Source of the DNA: a phage
Strand: one strand, 5' to 3'
DNA: 38,561 nt
Sequence record: PZ344858.1
In this document: positions 2,461 to 38,561 of the stretch, piece after piece
How the letters are laid out: the number at the start of each line of letters is the position of its first letter
Numbering within the stretch: position 1 is the stretch's first letter
The notes under the pieces: generated by a model
Database searches by the model: none
The model's input: the letters and a program-made list of their open reading frames with translations, nothing else
What the model was told of the DNA's origin: nothing
Position numbers and translations under genes: made by a program

Positions 2461-2687
2461 TTTATGCAGTAAGATTGCATAGGGATGCACTATAGGCCAC
2501 GGATGGTCAGTTCGTTAAGTTACTGAAAAGACACGAGGGACGAAAGGTTACTATATAGATACTGAATGAATACTTATAGAGTGCATAAAGTATGCATAGT
2601 AGTGTACCTAAAGTGACCTCTAAGAATGGTGATTATATTGTATTAATATCACCTTAACTTAAAGTCCAACATAAAGGGAGGAGACTC

Positions 2688-2837
2688 ATGTTCCGCTTAT
2701 TGTTGAACCTACTGCGGCATAGAGTCACCTACCGATTTCTTGTGGTACTTTGTGCTGCCCTTGGGTACGCATCGCTTAACGGAGACCTCAGTTCACTGGA
2801 GTCTACCGTTTGCTCTTTACTCACTTGTAGTGATTAA
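2688..2837 (+). CDS. 19.5: gp19.5-like small protein
   Basis: 49 aa ORF MFRLLLNLLRHRVTYRFLVVLCAALGYASLNGDLSSLESTVCSLLTCSD, RBS aagggagg; below the ORF-track length cut-off; matches T7 gp19.5 as recalled. Confidence 0.7.
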   Translation: MFRLLLNLLRHRVTYRFLVVLCAALGYASLNGDLSSLESTVCSLLTCSD

Positions 2838-3076
2838 GGTCTTCCTGACCGACTGACGGCTCACCGAGGGATTCAGCGGTATGATTGCATCACACCACTT
2901 CATCCCTATAGAGTCAAGTCCTAAGGTATGCCCATAAAGAGCCTCTAATGGTCTATCCTAAGGTCTATACCTAAAGATAGGCCATCCTATCAGTGTCACC
3001 TAAAGAGAGGCTTAGAGAGGGCCTAAGGAGTCCCTAGAGGGTCCTTTAAAATATACCATAAAAATCTGAGTGACTA

Positions 3077-4094: not shown

Positions 4095-4457
4095 ATGGCT
4101 ATGTCTAACATGACTTATAACAACGTTTTCGATCACGCTTACGAAATGCTGAAAGAAAACATCCGTTATGATGACATCCGTGACGCTGATGACCTGCACG
4201 ATGCAGTGCATATGGCGGCTGATAATGCTGTTCCGCACTATTACAGCGACGTTTTCAGTGTAATGGCAAGCGAGGGCATTGACCTTGAGTTTGAGGATTC
4301 TGGTCTGATGCCGGACACCAAGGACGTAATCCGTATCCTGCAAGCACGTATCTATGAGCAACTCACAATCGACCTCTGGGAAGACGCTGAGGACTTACTG
4401 AACGAGTATCTTGAGGAAGTCGAAGAGTCAGAAGACTACGAGGAGGAAGAAGAGTAA
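4095..4457 (+). CDS. ocr: Ocr DNA-mimic anti-restriction protein (T7 gp0.3 homolog)
   Basis: 120 aa, highly acidic with C-terminal [11 protein letters not shown]; near-identical to T7 Ocr as recalled; first gene after the early promoters. Confidence 0.95.
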
Positions 4458-4612
4458 TGGCTAACAACACCACGCAATATGGTCTGACCGCTCAAACTGT
4501 ACTGTTTTATAGTGACATGGTGCGCTGTGGCTTTGATTGGTCGCTCGCAATGGAACACCTTAAGGAACTGTACGAAAACAACAAGGCAATAGCCTTGGAG
4601 TCTGCTGAGTGA
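4457..4612 (+). CDS. 0.4: gp0.4-like small protein (FtsZ inhibitor in T7)
   Basis: 51 aa [54 protein letters not shown]; ATG overlaps the ocr stop; RBS gaggagg. Confidence 0.75.
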   Translation: MANNTTQYGLTAQTVLFYSDMVRCGFDWSLAMEHLKELYENNKAIALESAE

Positions 4613-4613
4613 T

Positions 4614-4658
4614 AGGCTCAAGGTCGCTCAATATGAGTGGCCTTTATGATTATCACTT
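4614..4658 (+). promoter_or_regulatory. RNase III-type processing hairpin (R0.5-like, copy 1)
   Basis: ctcaaggtcgctcaatatgagtggcctttatgattatcactt. Confidence 0.55.
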
Positions 4659-4680
4659 AACACGCTATAGGACTAACATC

Positions 4681-4881
4681 ATGAGTAAACTTCTGGCAAC
4701 CTCCAAAATCAAAGGCCAACACACTGTAACTCTGCGTGAGTACGAGCACGGGAAAATGGGTAGCACCTACGTTGTGCGGTACGGTAAACAAGTCACGCAT
4801 TGGGTGAACGAGGTTCTGGCACAGGAGGAATATCAAGCCTGTGTGATACACCAAGCAACCTGCGCTGGCTGGAATGACTGA
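4681..4881 (+). CDS. Hypothetical early protein (66 aa)
   Basis: ORF MSKLLATSKIKGQHTVTLREYEHGK...CAGWND with RBS agga; flanked by two near-identical RNase III-like hairpins; function unknown. Confidence 0.5.
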   Translation: MSKLLATSKIKGQHTVTLREYEHGKMGSTYVVRYGKQVTHWVNEVLAQEEYQACVIHQATCAGWND

Positions 4882-6419: not shown

Positions 6420-9071
6420 ATGAGCACGATTAACATCGCTAAGAACGATTTCTCTGACATCGAACTGGCTGCTATCCCGTTCAATACTCTGGCTGACCAC
6501 TATGGTGAGCGCCTAGCTCGCGAGCAGTTGGCCCTTGAACATGAGTCTTACGAGATGGGCGAGGCACGTTTCCGCAAGATGTTTGAGCGTCAACTTAAGG
6601 CCGGTGAGGTTGCAGACAATGCGGCTGCTAAACCACTGATTACTACTCTGCTGCCTAAGATGGTTACACGCATCAACGACTGGTTTGAGGAAGTGAAGGC
6701 TAAGCGCGGCAAACGTCCAACCGCTTTCCAGTTCCTGCAAGGAATCAAGCCGGAATCTGTAGCGTATATCACCATCAAGACTACCCTTGCTTGTCTGACG
6801 AGCGTGGACAATACAACCGTTCAGGCTGTAGCAAGCGCCATCGGACGGGCTATCGAGGAAGAAGCTCGCTTCGGTCGAATCCGTGACCTAGAAGCTAAGC
6901 ACTTCAAGAAAAACGTTGAGGAACAACTCAATAAGCGCGTAGGGCATGTCTACAAGAAAGCATTCATGCAAGTAGTCGAGGCCGATATGCTCTCAAAGGG
7001 TCTACTCGGTGGCGAGGCGTGGTCTACATGGCACAAGGAAGACTCCATTCACGTAGGTGTGCGCTGCATTGAGATGCTCATTGAGTCAACCGGAATGGTT
7101 AGCTTGCACCGCCAAAATGCTGGCGTAGTGGGCCAAGACTCTGAGACTATCGAACTGGCACACGAATACGCTGAGGCTATCGCAACACGGGCTGGGGCAC
7201 TGGCGGGTATCTCTCCGATGTATCAGCCTTGCATAGTACCGCCTAAACCTTGGACTGGTGTAACTGGTGGCGGATACTGGGCTAACGGTCGCCGTCCGCT
7301 GGTACTGGTACGCACCCACAGCAAGAAGGCACTGATGCGCTACGAAGATGTTTACATGCCTGAGGTATACAAGGCGATCAACATTGCGCAAAACACCGCT
7401 TGGAAAATCAACAAGAAAGTCCTAGCGGTCGCCAACGTAATCACCAAGTGGAAGCACTGCCCGGTCGAGGACATCCCAGCGATTGAACGTGAAGAACTCC
7501 CGATGAAACCGGAAGACATCGACACGAATCCTGAGGCGCTCACCACTTGGAAACGTGCCGCTGCCGCTGTGTATCGTAAGGACAAGGCCCGTAAGTCTCG
7601 CCGCATAAGCCTTGAGTTCATGCTTGAGCAAGCCAATAAGTTTGCTAACCGTAAGGCCATCTGGTTCCCTTACAACATGGACTGGCGCGGTCGCGTGTAC
7701 GCTGTGTCAATGTTCAATCCGCAAGGTAACGACATGACCAAAGGACTGCTAACACTGGCTAAAGGTAAACCAATCGGCAAGGAAGGATTCTACTGGCTGA
7801 AAATCCACGGGGCAAACTGCGCGGGAGTTGATAAGGTTCCATTCCCTGAGCGCATCAAGTTCATTGAGGACAACCACGATAACATCATGGCGTGCGCTAA
7901 GTCCCCACTGGAGAACACTTGGTGGGCTGAGCAAGATTCTCCGTTCTGCTTCCTCGCGTTCTGCTTTGAGTACGCTGGGGTACAGCACCACGGCCTGAGC
8001 TACAACTGCTCGCTGCCATTGGCTTTCGATGGGTCTTGCTCCGGTATCCAGCACTTCTCCGCGATGCTCCGCGATGAGGTGGGTGGCCGTGCTGTTAACC
8101 TGCTGCCTAGCGAAACCGTTCAGGACATCTACGGGATTGTTGCCAAGAAAGTCAACGAGATTCTGCAAGCTGATGCAATCAACGGTACCGATAACGAAGT
8201 GATTACCGTGACCGATGAGAACACTGGTGAAATCTCTGAGAAAGTCAAGCTGGGCACTAAAGCACTGGCTGGTCAATGGTTGGCCTACGGTGTGACTCGT
8301 AGCGTAACTAAGCGTTCAGTCATGACTCTGGCCTATGGCTCCAAAGAGTTCGGCTTCCGCCAGCAAGTCCTTGAGGACACCATACAGCCAGCTATTGATT
8401 CAGGAAAAGGCCTGATGTTCACGCAACCGAATCAAGCTGCTGGGTATATGGCTAAGCTGATTTGGGAGTCAGTGAGTGTTACCGTAGTGGCTGCTGTAGA
8501 GGCCATGAACTGGCTTAAGTCTGCTGCTAAGCTGCTGGCTGCTGAGGTCAAAGATAAGAAGACTGGTGAGATTCTTCGCAAGCGTTGCGCAGTGTATTGG
8601 GTAACTCCTGATGGCTTCCCTGTGTGGCAAGAATACAAGAAGCCAATTCAGACTCGCTTGAACTTGATGTTCCTCGGTCAGTTCCGCTTACAGCCGACCA
8701 TCAACACCAACAAGGACAGCGAGATTGATGCTCATAAGCAGGAGTCTGGTATCGCTCCTAACTTTGTGCACAGCCAAGACGGTAGCCACCTACGTAAGAC
8801 TGTAGTGTGGGCGCACGAGAAGTACGGAATCGAATCTTTTGCACTGATTCATGACTCCTTCGGGACCATTCCGGCTGATGCTGCCAACCTATTCAAGGCT
8901 GTTCGTGAGACTATGGTTGACACCTACGAGTCCTGCGATGTACTTGCAGACTTCTACAACCAGTTCGCTGACCAGTTACATGAATCTCAACTGGATAAAA
9001 TGCCAGCACTTCCGGCTAAAGGTAACTTGAATTTACGAGACATCTTAGAGTCAGACTTCGCGTTTGCGTAA
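6420..9071 (+). CDS. 1: Single-subunit DNA-directed RNA polymerase (T7 gp1 homolog)
   Basis: 883 aa, the same length as T7 RNAP and near-identical along the whole protein as recalled. Confidence 0.98.
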   Translation: MSTINIAKNDFSDIELAAIPFNTLADHYGERLAREQLALEHESYEMGEARFRKMFERQLKAGEVADNAAAKPLITTLLPKMVTRINDWFEEVKAKRGKRPTAFQFLQGIKPESVAYITIKTTLACLTSVDNTTVQAVASAIGRAIEEEARFGRIRDLEAKHFKKNVEEQLNKRVGHVYKKAFMQVVEADMLSKGLLGGEAWSTWHKEDSIHVGVRCIEMLIESTGMVSLHRQNAGVVGQDSETIELAHEYAEAIATRAGALAGISPMYQPCIVPPKPWTGVTGGGYWANGRRPLVLVRTHSKKALMRYEDVYMPEVYKAINIAQNTAWKINKKVLAVANVITKWKHCPVEDIPAIEREELPMKPEDIDTNPEALTTWKRAAAAVYRKDKARKSRRISLEFMLEQANKFANRKAIWFPYNMDWRGRVYAVSMFNPQGNDMTKGLLTLAKGKPIGKEGFYWLKIHGANCAGVDKVPFPERIKFIEDNHDNIMACAKSPLENTWWAEQDSPFCFLAFCFEYAGVQHHGLSYNCSLPLAFDGSCSGIQHFSAMLRDEVGGRAVNLLPSETVQDIYGIVAKKVNEILQADAINGTDNEVITVTDENTGEISEKVKLGTKALAGQWLAYGVTRSVTKRSVMTLAYGSKEFGFRQQVLEDTIQPAIDSGKGLMFTQPNQAAGYMAKLIWESVSVTVVAAVEAMNWLKSAAKLLAAEVKDKKTGEILRKRCAVYWVTPDGFPVWQEYKKPIQTRLNLMFLGQFRLQPTINTNKDSEIDAHKQESGIAPNFVHSQDGSHLRKTVVWAHEKYGIESFALIHDSFGTIPADAANLFKAVRETMVDTYESCDVLADFYNQFADQLHESQLDKMPALPAKGNLNLRDILESDFAFA

Positions 9072-25256: not shown

Positions 25257-25526
25257 ACTCTCGCTGGCACCTCTCGCTCGGATGCTACCGGTCAGAAGCA
25301 CGCCTTCCCGGCTACTAAGAGCGGTACTGACAAGGTTGCTAAGGACAACGTTATCGGCCTGTTCATGCACCGCTCTGCGGTAGGTACTGTTAAGCTGCGT
25401 GACTTGGCTCTGGAACGTGCTCGCCGTGCTAACTTCCAAGCGGACCAGATTATCGCGAAGTACGCAATGGGCCACGGTGGTCTGCGTCCAGAAGCTGCTG
25501 GTGCTGTGGTTTTCACGGCAGCGTAA
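25257..25526 (+). pseudogene. 10: Remnant of the major capsid protein gene (3' end of T7 gene 10A homolog), without start codon, RBS or promoter
   Basis: In-frame translation ...TGQKHAFPATKSGTDKVAKDNVIGLFMHRSAVGTVKLRDLALERARRANFQADQIIAKYAMGHGGLRPEAAGAVVFTAA* matches the C-terminal part of T7 gp10A as recalled; preceded by TGA TAG. Confidence 0.8.
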
Positions 25527-31958: not shown

Positions 31959-34900
31959 ATGGATAAGTACGATAAGAACGTACCAAGTGAGTATGACGGT
32001 CTGTTCCAAAAGGCGGCTGATGCCAACGGGGTCTCTTATGACCTTTTACGTAAAGTCGCTTGGACAGAATCACGGTTTCAACCCACAGCCAAGTCTAAAA
32101 CTGGACCACTGGGCATGATGCAGTTCACCAAGGCCACGGCTAAGGCTATGGGATTGCGAGTAACAGATGGTCCTTATGACGACCGACTTAACCCTGAATT
32201 GGCTATCAACGCTGCCGCTAAGCACCTTGCAGGTCTGGTAGGTAAATTTGATGGTGATGAACTCAAAGCTGCCCTTGCGTATAACCAAGGCGAGGGACGC
32301 TTGGGGAATCCACAACTTGAAGCGTACTCTAAGGGAGACTTCTCATCCATCTCCGAGGAAGGTCGTAATTATCTGCGCAATCTTCTGGATGTAGCTAAGT
32401 CTCCTATGTCTGGACAACTGGAAGCATTTGGTGGCATCACCCCAAAGGGTAAAGGAATTCCGGCTGATGTTGGACTGGCTGGGATTGGTCATAAGCAGAA
32501 AGTGACACAGGAACTTCCTGAGTCCACAAGTTTTGACGTTAAGGGTATCGAACAGGAGGCTACGGCGAAACCATTCGCCAAGGACTTTTGGGAGACCCAC
32601 GGAGAAACACTTGACGAGTACAACAGTCGTTCAACCTTCTTCGGATTCAAAAATACTGCCGAAGCTGAACTCTCCAACTCAGTCGCTGGGATGGCTTTCC
32701 GTGCTGGTCGTCTTGATAATGGTTTTGACGTGTTTAAAGACACCATTACGCCGACTCGCTGGAACTCTCACATCTGGACTCCAGAGGAGTTAGAGAAGAT
32801 TCGCACAGAGGTTAAGAACCCTGCGTACATCAACGTGGTGACTGGTGGTTCTCCTGAGAATCTTGACGAACTCATCAAGTTAGCTAATGAGAACTTTGAG
32901 GTGGATTTACGGAAATCAGAGGCCGGACTAGGAGCACAGCTTAGTGCTGGTATTATCGGTGCTGGTGTGGACCCACTCAGTTATGTTCCTATGGTTGGTG
33001 TGACTGGTAAGGGCTTTAAATTAATCAATAAGGCGCTTGTTGTTGGCGCTGAGAGTGCAGCACTTAACGTAGCCTCCGAGGGACTTCGAACCTCTGTGGC
33101 TGGTGGTGACTCGGACTATGCAGGCGCTGCCTTAGGTGGTTTTGTGTTTGGTGCTGGTATGTCCGCAATCAGTGATGCTATCGCTGCTGGACTAAAACGG
33201 GGTAAGCCGGAAGCTGAGTTCGACAATGAGTTCATTGGTCCTATGATGCGAATGGAAGCCAGAGAGACAGCGCGTAACGCCAACTCTGCGGACCTCTCTA
33301 GGATTAACACTGAGAACATGAAGTTTGAAGGTGAATACAAAGGCGTTCCTTATGAGGAACTTCCGACCGAAAAGGGTGCTGTGGTTCTCCATGATGGCTC
33401 CATACTTAGTGCGAGCAACCCAATCAACCCCAAGACTCTCAAAGAGTTCTCCGAGGTTGACCCTGAGAAAGCGGCACGAGGTATCAAACTAGCAGGGTTC
33501 ACTGAGATTGGGTTAAAGACCTTAGGCTCAGACGACGCTGATATTCGACGTGTAGCTATTGACCTAGTGCGGTCTCCTACAGGAATGCAATCAGGTTCCT
33601 CAGGGAAGTATGGTTCAACAGCCTCTGACATTTTCGAGAAACTTCGTGGCACTGACCAGCGTACTTACAACGACTTGTATAAGGCAATGTCTGACGCGAT
33701 GAAAGACCCTGAGTTCTCCACTGGCGGCGCTAAGATGTCTCGCGAAGAAGCTCGTTACACTATCGAGCGTCGAGTGGCCTTGGCTATTGAGAACCCTGAG
33801 CTACAGAAGGCTTTAACTCCTAACGAGCGAATCGTAATGGACATCGTTAAGCGACATTATGACACCAAGCGTGAACTTATGGAGAACCCTGCGGTCTTTG
33901 GTAATACGAAGGCTGTGAGTATCTTTCCAGAGAGTAGACACAAGGGAACGTATGTTCCACATGTGTACGACAAGTACGCTAAGGCACTAAAAATTCAACG
34001 CTATGGTGCTGAGGGCTTACAGGAAGGTATCGCTCGGTCATGGATGTGTAGCTACGATTTGAGACCTTCGGTAAAGGCCCGTATTGACGAAGCACTTAAA
34101 GAGATGCACGGTGTAGAGGAAGTCACTCATGATATGGTGTATAAGTACGCTATGGATAAAGCATACGGTATCTCTCACTCAGACAGGTTCACTAATAGCT
34201 CCATCATTGAGGAGAACATTGAGGGTCTTGTTGGTATAGAGAATAATTCATTCCTTGAAGCACGAAACCTCTTTGACTCCGACTTAGCAATCACCATGCC
34301 AGACGGTGAGCAATTCTCTGTGAACGATTTGAGGGACTTTAGTATGTTCCGTATCATGCCAGCGTATGACCGCCGTATCAACGGTGACATCGCAATAATG
34401 GGGTCTACCGGTAAAACCACTAAGGAACTTAAGGATGAGATTTTGGCTCTCAAAGCGAAAGCTGAGGGAGACGGTAAGAAGACAGGTGAGGTCCATGCTC
34501 TCATGGATACCGTTAAGATTCTTACTGGTCGTGCTCGACGCAATCAGGACACTGTGTGGGAAACCTCACTGCGTTCCATCAATGACCTAGGGTTCTTCGC
34601 CAAGAACGCCTATATGGGCGCTCAGAACCTTACGGAGATTGCTGGGATGATTGCCACGGGTAACGTGCGTGCCCTTGGTCACGGTATACCAATTCTACGT
34701 GATACCCTCTACAGGTCTAAACCAGTTTCCGCTAAGGAACTTAAGGAACTCCATGCCTCTCTATTCGGGAAGGAGGTGGACCAGTTGATTAGACCTCAGC
34801 GTGCTGACATAGTGCAGCGTCTAAGGGAAGCAACTGATACAGGACCTGTGGTTGCTAACATTGTAGGGACCTTGAAGTATTCCACACAGGAACTGGCTGC

Positions 34901-35933
34901 TCGCTCTCCGTGGACTAAGCTGCTTAATGGAACCACTAACTACCTTCTGGATGCTGCGCGTCAAGGTATGCTTGGGGACGTGATTAGTGCCACCCTAACA
35001 GGTAAGACTACCCGCTGGGAGAAAGAAGGATTCCTTCGGGGTGCCTCAATAACCCCTGAGCAGATGCAGGGAATCAAGGCACTCATTAAGGAACACATGG
35101 TGCGTGGTGAAGATGGTAAGTATACCGTTAAGGATAAGCACGCGTTCTCTATGGACCCAAGAGCTATGGACTTGTGGCGACTGGCTGATAAGGTAGCTGA
35201 CGAGGCAATGCTGCGTCCGCATAAGGTGTCCTTACAGGATTCACATGCGTTCGGAGCATTAGGCAAGATGGTGATGCAGTTTAAGTCTTTCACCATTAAA
35301 TCCCTTAACTCTAAGTTTCTGCGAACCTTCTACGATGGGTACAAGAACAACCGAGCGATTGACGCTGCGCTGACTGGTATCATCTCTATGGGTCTCGCTG
35401 GTGGTTACTACGCTATGGCTGCACACGTCAAAGCGTATGGAATGCCTAAGGAGAAACGTAAAGAATACTTGGAGCGTGCATTGGACCCAACCATGATTGC
35501 CCACGCGTCGTTATCTCGTAGTTCTCAATTAGGTGCTCCTTTGGCTATGGCTGACCTAGTTGGTGGCCTGTTCGGGGTTGAGTCCTCAAAGATGGCTCGC
35601 TCTACTATTCTTCCTAAAGACACCATGAGGGAGCGTGACCCTAATAAGCCTTATACCTCGTGGGAGGTAATGGGTAATATGGGTTCCAACATTCTTGAAC
35701 AGATGCCTTCGGCTGGATTTGTGGCTAACGTTGGGGCTTCCCTACTTAATACTGCTGGCGTGGTGAATGCTCCTAACAAAGCCACTGAGCAGGACTTCAT
35801 GACTGGTCTCATGAACTCCACAAAAGAGTTAGTACCGAACGACCCATTGACGCAACAGCTTGTGTTGAAGATTTATGAGGCGAATGGTGTTAACTTGAGG
35901 GAGCGTCGGAACGAAAGAATCTTCTCCCTGTAG
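31959..35933 (+). CDS. 16: Internal virion (core) protein D with N-terminal lytic transglycosylase domain (T7 gp16 homolog)
   Basis: 1324 aa; N-terminal SLT-like motif ESRFQPTAKSKTGPLGMMQF; RBS aaggagg. Confidence 0.95.
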   Translation: MDKYDKNVPSEYDGLFQKAADANGVSYDLLRKVAWTESRFQPTAKSKTGPLGMMQFTKATAKAMGLRVTDGPYDDRLNPELAINAAAKHLAGLVGKFDGDELKAALAYNQGEGRLGNPQLEAYSKGDFSSISEEGRNYLRNLLDVAKSPMSGQLEAFGGITPKGKGIPADVGLAGIGHKQKVTQELPESTSFDVKGIEQEATAKPFAKDFWETHGETLDEYNSRSTFFGFKNTAEAELSNSVAGMAFRAGRLDNGFDVFKDTITPTRWNSHIWTPEELEKIRTEVKNPAYINVVTGGSPENLDELIKLANENFEVDLRKSEAGLGAQLSAGIIGAGVDPLSYVPMVGVTGKGFKLINKALVVGAESAALNVASEGLRTSVAGGDSDYAGAALGGFVFGAGMSAISDAIAAGLKRGKPEAEFDNEFIGPMMRMEARETARNANSADLSRINTENMKFEGEYKGVPYEELPTEKGAVVLHDGSILSASNPINPKTLKEFSEVDPEKAARGIKLAGFTEIGLKTLGSDDADIRRVAIDLVRSPTGMQSGSSGKYGSTASDIFEKLRGTDQRTYNDLYKAMSDAMKDPEFSTGGAKMSREEARYTIERRVALAIENPELQKALTPNERIVMDIVKRHYDTKRELMENPAVFGNTKAVSIFPESRHKGTYVPHVYDKYAKALKIQRYGAEGLQEGIARSWMCSYDLRPSVKARIDEALKEMHGVEEVTHDMVYKYAMDKAYGISHSDRFTNSSIIEENIEGLVGIENNSFLEARNLFDSDLAITMPDGEQFSVNDLRDFSMFRIMPAYDRRINGDIAIMGSTGKTTKELKDEILALKAKAEGDGKKTGEVHALMDTVKILTGRARRNQDTVWETSLRSINDLGFFAKNAYMGAQNLTEIAGMIATGNVRALGHGIPILRDTLYRSKPVSAKELKELHASLFGKEVDQLIRPQRADIVQRLREATDTGPVVANIVGTLKYSTQELAARSPWTKLLNGTTNYLLDAARQGMLGDVISATLTGKTTRWEKEGFLRGASITPEQMQGIKALIKEHMVRGEDGKYTVKDKHAFSMDPRAMDLWRLADKVADEAMLRPHKVSLQDSHAFGALGKMVMQFKSFTIKSLNSKFLRTFYDGYKNNRAIDAALTGIISMGLAGGYYAMAAHVKAYGMPKEKRKEYLERALDPTMIAHASLSRSSQLGAPLAMADLVGGLFGVESSKMARSTILPKDTMRERDPNKPYTSWEVMGNMGSNILEQMPSAGFVANVGASLLNTAGVVNAPNKATEQDFMTGLMNSTKELVPNDPLTQQLVLKIYEANGVNLRERRNERIFSL

Positions 35934-35960
35934 TCTCTTAGATTTACTTAAGGAGGTCAA

Positions 35961-37637
35961 ATGGCTAACGTAATTAAAACCGTTTTGACTTACCCGTTAG
36001 ATGGCTCCAATCGTGATTTTAATATTCCGTTTGAGTATCTGGCCCGTAAGTTCGTAGTGGTAACTCTTATTGGTGTTGACCGCAAGGTCCTTACGCTCAA
36101 TACAGATTATCGCTTTGCTACGCGCACTACTATCTCGCTGACCAAATCTTGGGGTCCTGCTGATGGCTACACGACCATCGAGTTGCGCCGAGTAACCTCC
36201 ACGACCGACCGATTGGTTGACTTTACGGACGGCTCAATCCTGCGTGCGTATGACCTTAACGTAGCGCAGATTCAGACTATGCATGTGGCAGAAGAGGCCC
36301 GTGACTTAACTGCGGATACCATTGGTGTCAACAATGATGGTCACTTGGATGCCCGTGGTCGTCGTATCGTGAACCTAGCGAACGCTGTGGATGACCGTGA
36401 TGCCGTTCCATTTGGTCAACTTAAGACCATGAACCAGAACTCATGGCAAGCGCGTAATGAAGCCTTACAGTTCCGTAATGAGGCTGAGACTTTCAGAAAC
36501 CAAGCGGAGGGCTTTAAGAACGAGTCCAGCACTAACGCTACGAATACCAATCAGTGGCGTAATGAGGCTAAGGGGTTCCGTGATGAGGCCGAACAGTTCA
36601 AGAACACTGCGGCACAACAGGCTACCGCTGCTAGTAACTCTGCGGCTGCTGCTCACCAATCCGAGGTGAACGCTGCGAACTCCGCTACTGCATCCGCTAA
36701 CTCTGCCCAGTCGGCAGAACAGCAAGCAGACCGTGCGGAGCGTGAAGCAGACAAGTTGGGTAACTGGAATGCACTTGCAGAGGCCATTGAGGAAGTAAGT
36801 CCTGACCATGTGGTCACGTGGGCGGCTACTGCTAAGTTTAACGGTGAACTTATTGCTAAACGTTCTTCAACCCTGAATGCAACTGCCGAAGCTGGCTCTA
36901 TGGGGCAGATGGTACATGAATATGACCCGACTGCCGGGCGGTACACCTCAAATACATTTTGGGCTATCAAACACCCACATCAAGATGGATGGCACGTTCC
37001 CTTTCAGGTTCAAAGTAAACCTAATGATTCTGCTACATGGGAGATGCACTTCGGGGACTTCATGCATTGCTACAATGGCTTGCAGGTCGAAGGGTTCAAC
37101 AAACCGCTAGGTGTTACTAATCAGGCTAATACTGCCGTTAAGACGGTGGCACATGGTCCGGGTGATTTAGCCCAAGGCTCATGGGTATGTAACACCAGAT
37201 GGAGTTTCTACGACGCAGGGTTAGAAATTGGATGGGTTCGTGGTGGCTCTTCGAATGGCAACGGCCTACTCAGGTGGAAACCGGAAGCATCTCAAGCGAC
37301 GTATCATGACATTTGGCTAAACCCAGGTGGCGAGGTACAATTCCCATCCACGATTAAGGCAGGTGCTGCAACATATGCCGTTGATGGAAACATTGCCGGA
37401 ACTGTATGGGGCGGTTCTGGTCATCTTTACGGGTGGCTTAGAGAAAACACAGTCAACCACATTGCGATGGGTGGAGTTAACTGGGCGCAACTGTGGAGGG
37501 CTGGCGGTGTTGATGATGGTGGCGGTAAGGTCATAACAGGTATTTTAAACACGAACGCCGATGACACGGTAGATGGCTGCCAGTGGCGTGTTATGCAATA
37601 TGTACGCAACGATGGTCAACGCTTCAATATTTACTAA
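35961..37637 (+). CDS. 17: Tail fibre protein (T7 gp17-like N-terminal half, divergent C-terminal receptor-binding half)
   Basis: 558 aa; residues 1 to about 265 near-identical to T7 gp17 as recalled; remainder unrelated to the T7 tip. Confidence 0.95.
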   Translation: MANVIKTVLTYPLDGSNRDFNIPFEYLARKFVVVTLIGVDRKVLTLNTDYRFATRTTISLTKSWGPADGYTTIELRRVTSTTDRLVDFTDGSILRAYDLNVAQIQTMHVAEEARDLTADTIGVNNDGHLDARGRRIVNLANAVDDRDAVPFGQLKTMNQNSWQARNEALQFRNEAETFRNQAEGFKNESSTNATNTNQWRNEAKGFRDEAEQFKNTAAQQATAASNSAAAAHQSEVNAANSATASANSAQSAEQQADRAEREADKLGNWNALAEAIEEVSPDHVVTWAATAKFNGELIAKRSSTLNATAEAGSMGQMVHEYDPTAGRYTSNTFWAIKHPHQDGWHVPFQVQSKPNDSATWEMHFGDFMHCYNGLQVEGFNKPLGVTNQANTAVKTVAHGPGDLAQGSWVCNTRWSFYDAGLEIGWVRGGSSNGNGLLRWKPEASQATYHDIWLNPGGEVQFPSTIKAGAATYAVDGNIAGTVWGGSGHLYGWLRENTVNHIAMGGVNWAQLWRAGGVDDGGGKVITGILNTNADDTVDGCQWRVMQYVRNDGQRFNIY

Positions 37638-37649
37638 AGGAGATACACT

Positions 37650-38177
37650 ATGAAGACTTTACGTCACTATAAGAACTTCGTAAACTATATCCCAGAACGC
37701 ACCAAAGAGAATGCAGACCTTCTGGACCACGGAGTTGGCTTCTCAAAGGACGAGAATGGGAATGACTGGTATGAACTACGTGAGACATTCCGTGAGGATA
37801 CGTGGAAACTTGTCTATGCTAAAGATGGTTCGGTTATCCAGTGTGAACAGGATGTTCAGGAGTTAGCCGTGCAGGGTTCTGCTGGGGTAGTTGAACTTGA
37901 GGAAATCCCTGCTGAATACTCTCGTTACAATATGATGCAGTGGTGGTGGGACGGTGAGAAGCTCACTTGGTATCCGAGATACTTTGAGAACCAGAAGGCT
38001 CGTCTACTCTCTATGGCCTCCAAGAAGATTGAGCAGTATGCTGACTTTATGGCGCTTGGGGAGGAGGGATTAGAGGGTCTACTAAATGCGTGGCGAATCT
38101 ATCGACTTGCTGTGTATAAAGTGGACCTAAGTGTTCTACCTTTTTACGATTGGCCTGAGAAGCCTGAGGACTTATAA
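37650..38177 (+). CDS. Tail fibre assembly protein / chaperone (lambda Tfa-like)
   Basis: 175 aa with RBS aaaggag; C-terminal NAWRIYRLAVYKVDLSVLPFYDWPEKPE resembles lambda Tfa [27 protein letters not shown]; located immediately 3' of the tail-fibre gene. Confidence 0.8.
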   Translation: MKTLRHYKNFVNYIPERTKENADLLDHGVGFSKDENGNDWYELRETFREDTWKLVYAKDGSVIQCEQDVQELAVQGSAGVVELEEIPAEYSRYNMMQWWWDGEKLTWYPRYFENQKARLLSMASKKIEQYADFMALGEEGLEGLLNAWRIYRLAVYKVDLSVLPFYDWPEKPEDL

Positions 38178-38232
38178 CAACCACACAAGGAAAGACGTGT
38201 AGTCCACGGATGGACTCAGTTATGGAGGATAC

Positions 38233-38436
38233 ATGTTGTCTTTAGATTTTAACAATGAGTTAGTCAAGGCTGCACCTATTGTTGGAACAGGTGTGGCTGA
38301 TGGCGCTGCGAGGCTTTTCTTCGGGTTGAGTCTTAATGAGTGGTTTTATGTTGCTGCTATCGCCTATACAGTGGTTCAGATTGGTGCCAAGGTAGTCGAT
38401 AAGATGATTGACTGGAAGAAAGCTAATAAGGAGTGA
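38233..38436 (+). CDS. 17.5: Class II holin (T7 gp17.5 homolog)
   Basis: 67 aa with a hydrophobic transmembrane segment and charged C-terminus KKANKE; RBS ggagga. Confidence 0.85.
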   Translation: MLSLDFNNELVKAAPIVGTGVADGAARLFFGLSLNEWFYVAAIAYTVVQIGAKVVDKMIDWKKANKE

Positions 38437-38441
38437 TGCAT

Positions 38442-38561
38442 ATGGAAAAAGATAAGAGCCTTATCACGTTCTTAGAGATGTTGGACACTGCGATGGCGCA
38501 ACGTATGCTTGCAGACCTTTCTGACCCTGAGCGTCGTTCTCCACAGCTATACAACGCCATC
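38442..38561 (+). CDS. 18: Small terminase subunit (T7 gp18-like), N-terminal part; continues at window positions 1-150
   Basis: MEKDKSLITFLEMLDTAMAQRMLADLSDPERRSPQLYNAI runs to the window end in frame with the CDS at 1-150. Confidence 0.85.
   Translation, partial: MEKDKSLITFLEMLDTAMAQRMLADLSDPERRSPQLYNAI

Follow-up and report, generated by a model that had tools for sequence, protein, structure and literature searches.

A mosaic tail fiber and a Mu-type tail fiber assembly gene in the genome of a T7-like podovirus

Modular exchange of phage tail fiber tips and the associated tail fiber assembly (Tfa) genes has been known for decades. Here, we describe the tail fiber locus in the circularly permuted, near-complete genome of a T7-like podovirus (sequence record PZ344858.1; 38,561 nucleotides (nt), the whole of which is referred to below as the window). 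The locus consists of the tail fiber gene 17, an open reading frame (ORF) at 35961-37637 that encodes the 558 amino acid (aa) protein gp17, and, after a 12-nt gap on the same strand, an ORF of 175 aa (37650-38177), referred to as gene 17.2; the parts of the locus described below lie on the plus strand. The original prediction had described a mosaic fiber with a non-T7 tip, accompanied by a Tfa-family gene that T7 does not have, and this description is borne out by the collapse of identity to T7 within gp17 and by the match of the downstream protein to the Pfam family Caudo_TAP.

The N-terminal tail-attachment domain of gp17 (aa 1-162; 35961-36446) is of the T7 type and matches the Pfam family Phage_T7_tail (PF03906; expect value (E) 1.4e-72) as well as the PDB structures 7BOZ, 8E4G, and 8DSP. 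The coiled-coil shaft that follows (aa 163-264; 36447-36752) is assigned to the T7/PGX1 type by comparison of aa identities: from residue 151 to about 264, gp17 is 88% identical to the shaft of phage PGX1 and 20-27% identical to those of phages Bas103, Yanou, LL2, and Kvp1. In an alignment with wild-type T7 gp17, 147 of the first 150 residues are identical (98%), as are all 46 residues at aa 151-196 and 57 of the 70 at aa 197-266; identity amounts to 94% over aa 1-266 and collapses beyond this point. The near-identity to T7 that had been claimed up to about residue 265 therefore holds for aa 1-196, whereas the distal shaft (aa 197-266) is about 81% identical.

The left recombination junction coincides with a linker, KLGNWNALAEAIEEV (aa 263-277; 36747-36791), which is conserved in all the tips that were aligned. 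Nucleotide similarity to T7 (88%) stops at 36790 and similarity to Bas103 and Yanou starts at 36751; a base-by-base alignment places the crossover at about 36750-36760, in agreement with both the start at 36750 and the landmark sequence ...READKLGNWNALAEAIEEV given in the original prediction. The nucleotide similarity to Bas103 spans 36751-38233, with the shaft (36410-36750) excluded.

Beyond the linker, gp17 continues with a beta-rich middle domain (aa 265-474; 36753-37382), the relatives of which are found in Bas103, Yanou, and Bas67. The aa identity of this domain is 70-71% to Bas103 and Yanou and 19-26% to other Tfa-bearing fibers; Escherichia phage ErnstBeyeler (Bas67; MZ501064), which is devoid of Tfa, is 79% identical to the window at the nucleotide level over 36743-37345. 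When the entire tip (aa 265-558) was used as a tblastn query, only Bas103 (74%) and Yanou (72%) were matched end to end. The match to Bas67 (75%) was confined to tip residues 1-229, and the matches to PGX1, the Leclercia phages, ESh2, ESh10, LL2, SPLA4, and Seera (60-71%) were confined to the last ~90 residues. When 1.84 billion representative proteins were searched exhaustively by HMMER with the tip as query, 31 hits were obtained in total, among which the middle domain was matched in full by two proteins (P0003 and P0006), in part by one (P0012), and by nothing else, so that this domain has to be considered rare. The AlphaFold2 (AF2) model of the tip has a predicted local distance difference test (pLDDT) score of 38-59 over the first ~130 residues, the N-terminal linker excepted, and of about 80 at tip residues 140-200. 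Pfam and NCBIfam searches with the tip (aa 265-558) at permissive thresholds gave no hit, and accordingly, a depolymerase domain cannot be claimed.

The second recombination junction falls in a neck motif, DGNIAGTVWGGSGHLYGWL (aa 475-493; 37383-37439), that is common to T7 gp17 and Mu gpS. Within this stretch, similarity to Bas67 fades and similarity to PGX1, LL2, and Kvp1 begins; at the nucleotide level, the similarity to these three phages and to Leclercia phage 10164-302 starts at 37433. A segment of 57 residues around the neck (aa 467-523, DGNIAGTVWGG...WL...) aligns weakly to residues 434-482 of T7 gp17 (phmmer domain E 0.21; 35.6% over 59 aa in blastp). Apart from this neck, the C-terminal half of gp17 did not align to the T7 tip: the T7-type C-terminal pyramid and self-folding tip (4A0T, residues 371-553) are absent, and the fold-level match to the T7 tip found with Foldseek is weak (E 4e-3, template modeling (TM) score 0.24-0.36). 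The claim that the tip bears no resemblance to that of T7 is thus accurate for most of the region, which is unalignable, and has to be qualified for the neck.

The neck opens the distal C-terminal domain (aa 475-558 plus the stop codon; 37383-37637), which both profile searches and Foldseek assign to the Mu gpS C-terminal family. Profile A1, built from window aa 457-558 plus homologs, matches the Mu fiber proteins S' (8JU3_A, E 8e-21) and S (5YVQ_A, E 1.5e-8). T7 gp17 (4A0T, E 2e-7) is also matched, but by the first half of the profile only, which corresponds to the neck; the matches to 4A0T and 5YVQ_A cover the neck motif. The domain is modeled by AF2 with a pLDDT of about 90, and its top Foldseek match is 5YVQ_A, from the Mu fiber crystallized together with its chaperone. 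The distal domain is the presumed docking site for Tfa. In the search of 1.84 billion representatives, the last ~100 residues of the tip recur as the C-termini of fibers of 123-1842 aa, many of them from myoviruses or prophages, including one fiber with a P2 H-type N-terminus (PF12571) and another with a prophage phage_tail_N domain. Word-indexed protein searches yielded few hits, 2 with the tip and 3 with Tfa, and did not reveal the donor lineage. Lambda Stf and T-even gp37 were considered as tip donors and rejected, the relatives outside Studiervirinae being only C-terminal domains of myovirus and prophage fibers. An intramolecular chaperone (IMC) domain was sought at the gp17 C-terminus and not found: Pfam gave no hit past aa 169, and relaxing the threshold to E<=10 for the tip alone gave none either. 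The Mu S-type domain occupies the place where it was sought.

Gene 17.2 is a tail fiber assembly protein gene of the Mu gpU/P2 gpG type, as indicated by matches to PF02413, phrog_136, and 5YVQ_B. It was predicted to possess a strong ribosome-binding site of its own and a C-terminal signature, and both can be read directly: a Shine-Dalgarno sequence AAGGAG (37637-37642), the first base of which is also the last of the gp17 stop codon, is separated by a 7-nt spacer from the ATG at 37650, and the C-terminus reads NAWRIYRLAVYKVDLSVLPFYDWPEKPEDL, conforming to the signature W..YR..L..VD.S.....WP..P. The check proposed for 37650-38177 returned Caudo_TAP (PF02413) with an E of 1.1e-9 and 39.0 bits (gathering score, 22.1), the match extending over Tfa aa 45-173 and profile positions 4-131 of 131. 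The PHROG family phrog_136 ("tail fiber assembly protein") is matched with an E of 1.1e-38, and the single phmmer hit in the PDB is Mu gpU (5YVQ_B, E 5.5e-11; aa 5-173 on 2-175). The adhesin family of the T4/T2 gp38 type was not matched; a Pfam scan at E<=1 gave only Caudo_TAP, and all PHROG hits were of the Tfa type. The suggested affiliation with lambda Tfa or T4 gp38-type chaperones is therefore right as to the Tfa family and is narrowed down to the Mu gpU/P2 gpG type. Compared with six homologs, Tfa has a ratio of nonsynonymous to synonymous substitution rates (dN/dS) of 0.02-0.09, which argues that this is a functional gene rather than a chance ORF. The secondary structure predicted in an unreliable AF2 model (pLDDT 41), with strands at aa 11-107 and long helices at 109-165, is compatible with the two-domain Tfa fold, in which an N-terminal alpha/beta domain binds the fiber and a C-terminal helical domain trimerizes.

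Identity matrices for nine Tfa-bearing phages reveal how unevenly the parts of the locus are conserved: aa identity is 71-98% in the N-terminal domain, 20-94% in the shaft, 19-90% in the middle domain, 60-96% in the distal domain, and 80-98% in Tfa. The middle domain comes in at least three unrelated types among these nine phages. The dN/dS values climb from Tfa to the distal domain (0.13-0.22, the saturated Kvp1 comparison excepted) and on to the middle domain (0.25-0.28). Every Studiervirinae fiber with this distal domain that we examined has a Tfa gene next to it, and the distant myovirus fibers of MyoSmar and PCSE1 that contain the domain are each followed by a Tfa gene as well. In Bas67, the neck is followed by a T7-type tip, and the fiber gene is directly succeeded by the holin gene, with no Tfa. 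Taken at the sequence level, these observations mean that Tfa travels with the Mu S-type distal domain and not with the whole tip, and that the distal/Tfa cassette is exchanged independently of the middle domain. The two are to be regarded as separate modules because each has its own set of relatives and a breakpoint lies between them. Bas67, with the same middle domain, a T7-type tip, and no Tfa, serves as a natural control for this independence, as well as for the presumed reliance of the Mu S-type distal domain on Tfa. Accordingly, the proposal that a single module of tip plus chaperone had been acquired is correct in that the tip is foreign and linked to a chaperone; the tip comprises two modules, however, and only the distal domain is linked to Tfa.

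The order gene 17, Tfa, holin gene is present in at least 12 natural Studiervirinae, with Tfa proteins 82-98% identical to that of the window phage (tblastn), and Tfa is located between gene 17 and the holin gene in every relative examined. The carriers include PGX1, Yanou, ESh6, ESh2, and Bas103 in Teseptimavirus, Leclercia phages 10164-302 and 10164RH as well as LL2 in Teetrevirus, and Kvp1 in Berlinvirus, in addition to ESh10, Seera, and SPLA4. The next-best relatives of Tfa share ~30% identity with it; they comprise Tfa proteins from Mu-like and P1-like phages, where they are annotated as U, together with those of other myoviruses. Several metagenome contigs display the same order, and one metagenome scaffold (L020) combines a T7-type shaft with the same tip and Tfa at 88% nt identity. 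The Kvp1 record annotates this gene as "17.2, putative phage tail fiber assembly protein"; in the 2008 Kvp1 paper, 17-17.2 is among the regions unlike phage Berlin (PMC2579914), and a "Mu-like Tfa" was named in Bas103 in 2025 (PMC11990801, S7 Fig). The arrangement is natural, already annotated and published in T7-like phages, and neither new nor designed. In the record of Shigella phage ESh2 (ON528716, marked "UNVERIFIED"), the Tfa ORF (local 4214-4819) is 201 aa long with an aberrant C-terminus, and gp17 ends in ...GQCFNIY; this probably reflects a frameshift or sequencing error in the unverified record.

The explanation that we favor, with a probability of about 85%, is that this is a natural Studiervirinae receptor-recognition locus assembled by recombination from four exchangeable parts, in which a Mu gpU-type Tfa would assist folding of the distal domain. 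The T7-type adaptor and coiled-coil shaft (aa 1-264) would mount the trimeric fiber on the tail; the rare, beta-rich middle domain (aa 265-474) is the part of Bas103/Yanou/Bas67 type; and the distal domain (aa 475-558), of the same family as the C-terminus of the Mu gpS/S' fiber, forms one cassette with the Mu gpU-type Tfa encoded directly downstream by gene 17.2. The N-terminal domain of Mu Tfa binds the distal fiber, its conserved C-terminal domain trimerizes, and the protein stays in the virion (North et al. 2019, summarized in PMC9608196); for Gp59 and Gp60 of Bas103, a Mu-like hexameric complex has been predicted (PMC11990801). By analogy with Mu, three Tfa subunits would attach by their N-terminal halves to the distal domain, and trimerization of the conserved C-terminal helices would bring the three gp17 chains into register, so that folding could proceed from the C-terminus; Tfa may then stay on the finished fiber. 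T7 needs no Tfa gene because a self-folding tip follows the same neck motif.

Several points weigh against this explanation. The AF2 model of Tfa, obtained with a 4-sequence alignment, reaches a pLDDT of 41; sequence similarity between Tfa and Mu gpU is only ~30%; and the complex of gp17 with Tfa is posited for the window phage by extrapolation from Mu. The source sequence contains artefactual excisions elsewhere and is thus of imperfect integrity; both ORFs discussed here are nevertheless intact and collinear with those of relatives. The roles of the parts can also be argued in two ways: the distal domain and Tfa are near-constant across six host genera, which suggests that the middle domain carries specificity, and Bas67 and Bas103 share the middle domain type and differ in tip and receptor class, which suggests that the distal part matters.

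The strong conservation of Tfa bears on two other views of gene 17.2. One is that the 175-aa protein is mainly a tip adhesin that remains at the fiber end and itself binds the receptor, like gp38 of T2 and S16 and as suggested for the Tfa proteins of Mu and Ur-lambda, and that folding of gp17 is a secondary function. Mu Tfa does stay bound to the distal fiber in the mature phage and aids receptor recognition (PMC9608196), and the window Tfa can be aligned with Mu gpU from end to end. If it were the main determinant of specificity, however, Tfa should vary with the host, whereas it is the most conserved part of the locus, at 80-98% identity across phages of Escherichia, Shigella, Cedecea, Leclercia, and Kluyvera and 82-89% in phages of Serratia and Salmonella, with the low dN/dS given above; given also that the GP38-adhesin family is not matched, we consider this view unlikely. 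The other is that the gene is a hitch-hiking remnant and the distal domain folds autonomously in the manner of the T7 tip, given that the fibers of T7 and Bas67 share the neck motif and fold without Tfa. An intact ORF with a consensus ribosome-binding site and under strong purifying selection is not what a remnant would look like, and the strict co-occurrence of Tfa with the Mu S-type distal domain, its absence where the tip is of the T7 type, and the lack of an intramolecular chaperone domain in gp17 all make this very improbable.

A laboratory-designed fiber swap, that is, an engineered T7 chassis with a heterologous tip and chaperone, had also been raised. Engineered gp17 chimeras are on record, such as T7-BPP1 Mtd in LR745707, and the excisions of promoters, of the terminator Tphi, and of most of gene 10 in the window look unnatural. 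The backbone is not that of T7 (~89-90% nt identity), however, and is closest to phages WW2 and HZ2R8 (94%); the junctions lie within conserved motifs, with graded divergence on both sides and no vector scars; and the same architecture occurs in many independent sewage and wastewater isolates and metagenome contigs at 84-92% nt identity. The excised pieces correspond to T7 segments carried by pET-type vectors and point to computational vector trimming rather than design. With the same gene order found naturally in at least 12 Studiervirinae and in metagenome contigs, the idea of a designed swap is unsupported, and we regard it as exceedingly improbable.

On the natural mosaic locus with a Tfa-assisted distal domain, receptor specificity is expected to be determined by the variable middle domain, by the distal domain through its variable surface, or by the two together, and the target is probably the lipopolysaccharide (LPS) or O-antigen glycan of an enterobacterium. 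Bas102-104 depend on the O16 O-antigen, and earlier Studiervirinae of the BASEL collection use the LPS core on E. coli K-12 (PMC11990801). The nearest characterized tip is that of Bas103 (74% aa), and Bas67 was isolated on E. coli K-12. A host range differing from that of T7 is plausible. More tentatively, the rare and fast-evolving middle domain might be the real determinant of host specificity, with the nearly invariant distal domain and Tfa forming a portable "folding cap" that could be joined to any middle domain at the DGNIxGxxWGG neck, a conjecture that we find rather doubtful. If true, it would turn around the picture known from T7, where the receptor is bound by the extreme tip, and engineers could fit new receptor-binding domains of gp17 with a universal C-terminal cassette folded with the help of a chaperone.

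The remainder of the window is consistent with a T7-like genome. The large entries in the ORF list are in T7 order, with a terminase-sized ORF at 688-2460, an RNA polymerase-sized ORF at 6420-9071, and gp16 at 31959-35933, and gene 18 forms the end of the window. Over bases 1-25000, the nearest backbone is that of Yersinia phage vB_YenP_WW2, with 94.4% nt identity, followed by E. coli phage HZ2R8, with 93.7%, and identity to T7 is about 89-90%. For the fiber region, no match above 91% was detected among the records of the phage collection, and an exact look-up of the window gp17 sequence found none on record. Because the closest backbones are those of WW2 and HZ2R8, T7 is at ~90%, and no fiber-region record exceeds 91%, the window phage is an undescribed T7 relative within Studiervirinae and not T7 itself.

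Downstream of Tfa, gene 17.5 (38233-38436) encodes a type II holin (PF10746, E 1e-35). As had been stated, wild-type T7 (LR745710) has no gene between 17 and 17.5, and the former is directly followed by the latter. Nucleotide similarity to T7 picks up again at 38184 (blastn), and the right junction is marked by an intergenic element 5' of the holin gene (38187-38220), CACAAGGAAAGACGTGTAGTCCACGGATGGACTC, that is identical in T7 and has one mismatch in PGX1. The element holds a short inverted repeat, AGTCCA...TGGACT, and is conserved despite differing flanks; it may serve RNA processing or regulation. A scan of 35700-38561 for sigma-70 promoters and terminators gave nothing exceeding the shuffle expectation and so provides no evidence that the inserted cassette has a promoter or terminator of its own. 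In WW2 (OP161219), a different ORF of 128 aa (2649-3035), with no Pfam or PHROG match, lies between gene 17 and the holin gene and could encode an uncharacterized chaperone; for this reason, the 17/17.5 junction seems to be a hot spot for fiber-accessory genes. The same record annotates three "tail fiber protein" pieces (local 13-588, 904-1047, and 1055-2638), and the gp17 N-terminal region is doubled in it, window 35972-36380 matching both 42-450 and 1042-1450, pointing to a terminal repeat or to a duplication introduced by assembly.

The source sequence has gaps relative to WW2, T7, and other relatives, located at 25261/25262, ~25626, and 35909-35910 and near 2540, 21340, 24250, and 28650. 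All the perfect-consensus class III promoters of WW2 (phiOR, phi6.5, phi9, phi10, phi13, and phi17) are missing from the window, in gaps of ~25-33 nt, and mismatched promoters are kept. At phi17, a 26-nt deletion (ATAATACGACTCACTATAGGGAGAGG) takes the gene 16 stop codon (TAA) with it, because of which the gp16 ORF runs on for a few codons (...RNERIFSL*) to 35933 and genes 16 and 17 are 27 nt apart rather than ~70. At 25261/25262, 923 nt are missing, corresponding to phi10, the leader, and ~257 codons of capsid gene 10, and at ~25626, the terminator Tphi (GCTGCTAACAAAGCCCGAAAGGAAGCTGA...CTAGCATAACCCCTTGGGGCCTCTAAACGGGTCTTGAGGGGTTTTTTG) is missing; the genome as written contains no intact major capsid gene. 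We take the missing pieces to be the T7 fragments of pET-type vectors, namely, the promoter, a 260-codon gene 10 fragment, and the T7 terminator, and from this we infer that an automated vector screen is likely to have excised them. As regards data quality, then, vector-like T7 segments appear to have been cut from the window sequence, most of the capsid gene included; the fiber/Tfa region is unaffected.

For annotation, the ORF at 37650-38177 should be described as a Mu-type tail fiber assembly protein (gene 17.2) and gp17 as a four-module mosaic, the host specificity of which cannot be deduced from T7. For phage engineering, two splice points that have served repeatedly in nature are on hand for exchanging gp17 modules, the KLGN..ALA linker (nt ~36750) and the DGNIxGxxWGG neck (nt 37383-37439); the distal domain must move together with its Tfa. 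These findings leave the current understanding unchanged; what they add is a four-module map with two precise and reusable junctions, the linkage of Tfa to the distal domain, and Bas67 as a Tfa-less control.

Among known systems, Bas103 (Escherichia phage EmilieLinder, PQ850602), with its fiber Gp59 and Tfa Gp60, is the most similar. It shares the genus-level backbone and the order 16, 17, Tfa with the window phage, and its middle domain, distal domain, and Tfa are 71%, 81%, and 95% identical at the aa level, respectively; a published AlphaFold-Multimer model of its 3:3 fiber-Tfa complex resembles that of Mu (PMC11990801). It differs in having a longer shaft (598 aa fiber, shaft 27% identical) and a tip 74% identical overall, and its O16 O-antigen receptor is not transferable to the window phage. 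Kluyvera phage Kvp1 (FJ194439; Lingohr et al. 2008, PMC2579914) contains the earliest annotated Tfa between 17 and 17.5 that we found, with 83% aa identity in Tfa and 63% in the distal domain, but has a Berlinvirus backbone and an unrelated middle region (26% aa) that opens with a T7-like segment. Bas67 shares the middle domain type (75% aa over tip residues 1-229) but has a T7-type tip and no Tfa. T7 gp17 (4A0T, 7BOZ) has the same neck, DGNIxGTxWGG...WL, and the same genomic place of the fiber; it differs in the "pyramid" domain past the shaft and in its self-folding beta-sandwich tip, the sequences ceasing to align after the neck. Phage Mu gpS/S' and gpU/U' (5YVQ, 8JU3) share with the window phage the length of Tfa, the distal-domain family, and the position of the chaperone gene directly 3' of the fiber gene. 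At ~30% identity, however, they belong to a myovirus in which the fiber is mounted on the baseplate and an invertible G segment carries two S/U pairs, whereas the window phage has a single, fixed fiber/Tfa pair on the gp17 adaptor of a podovirus.

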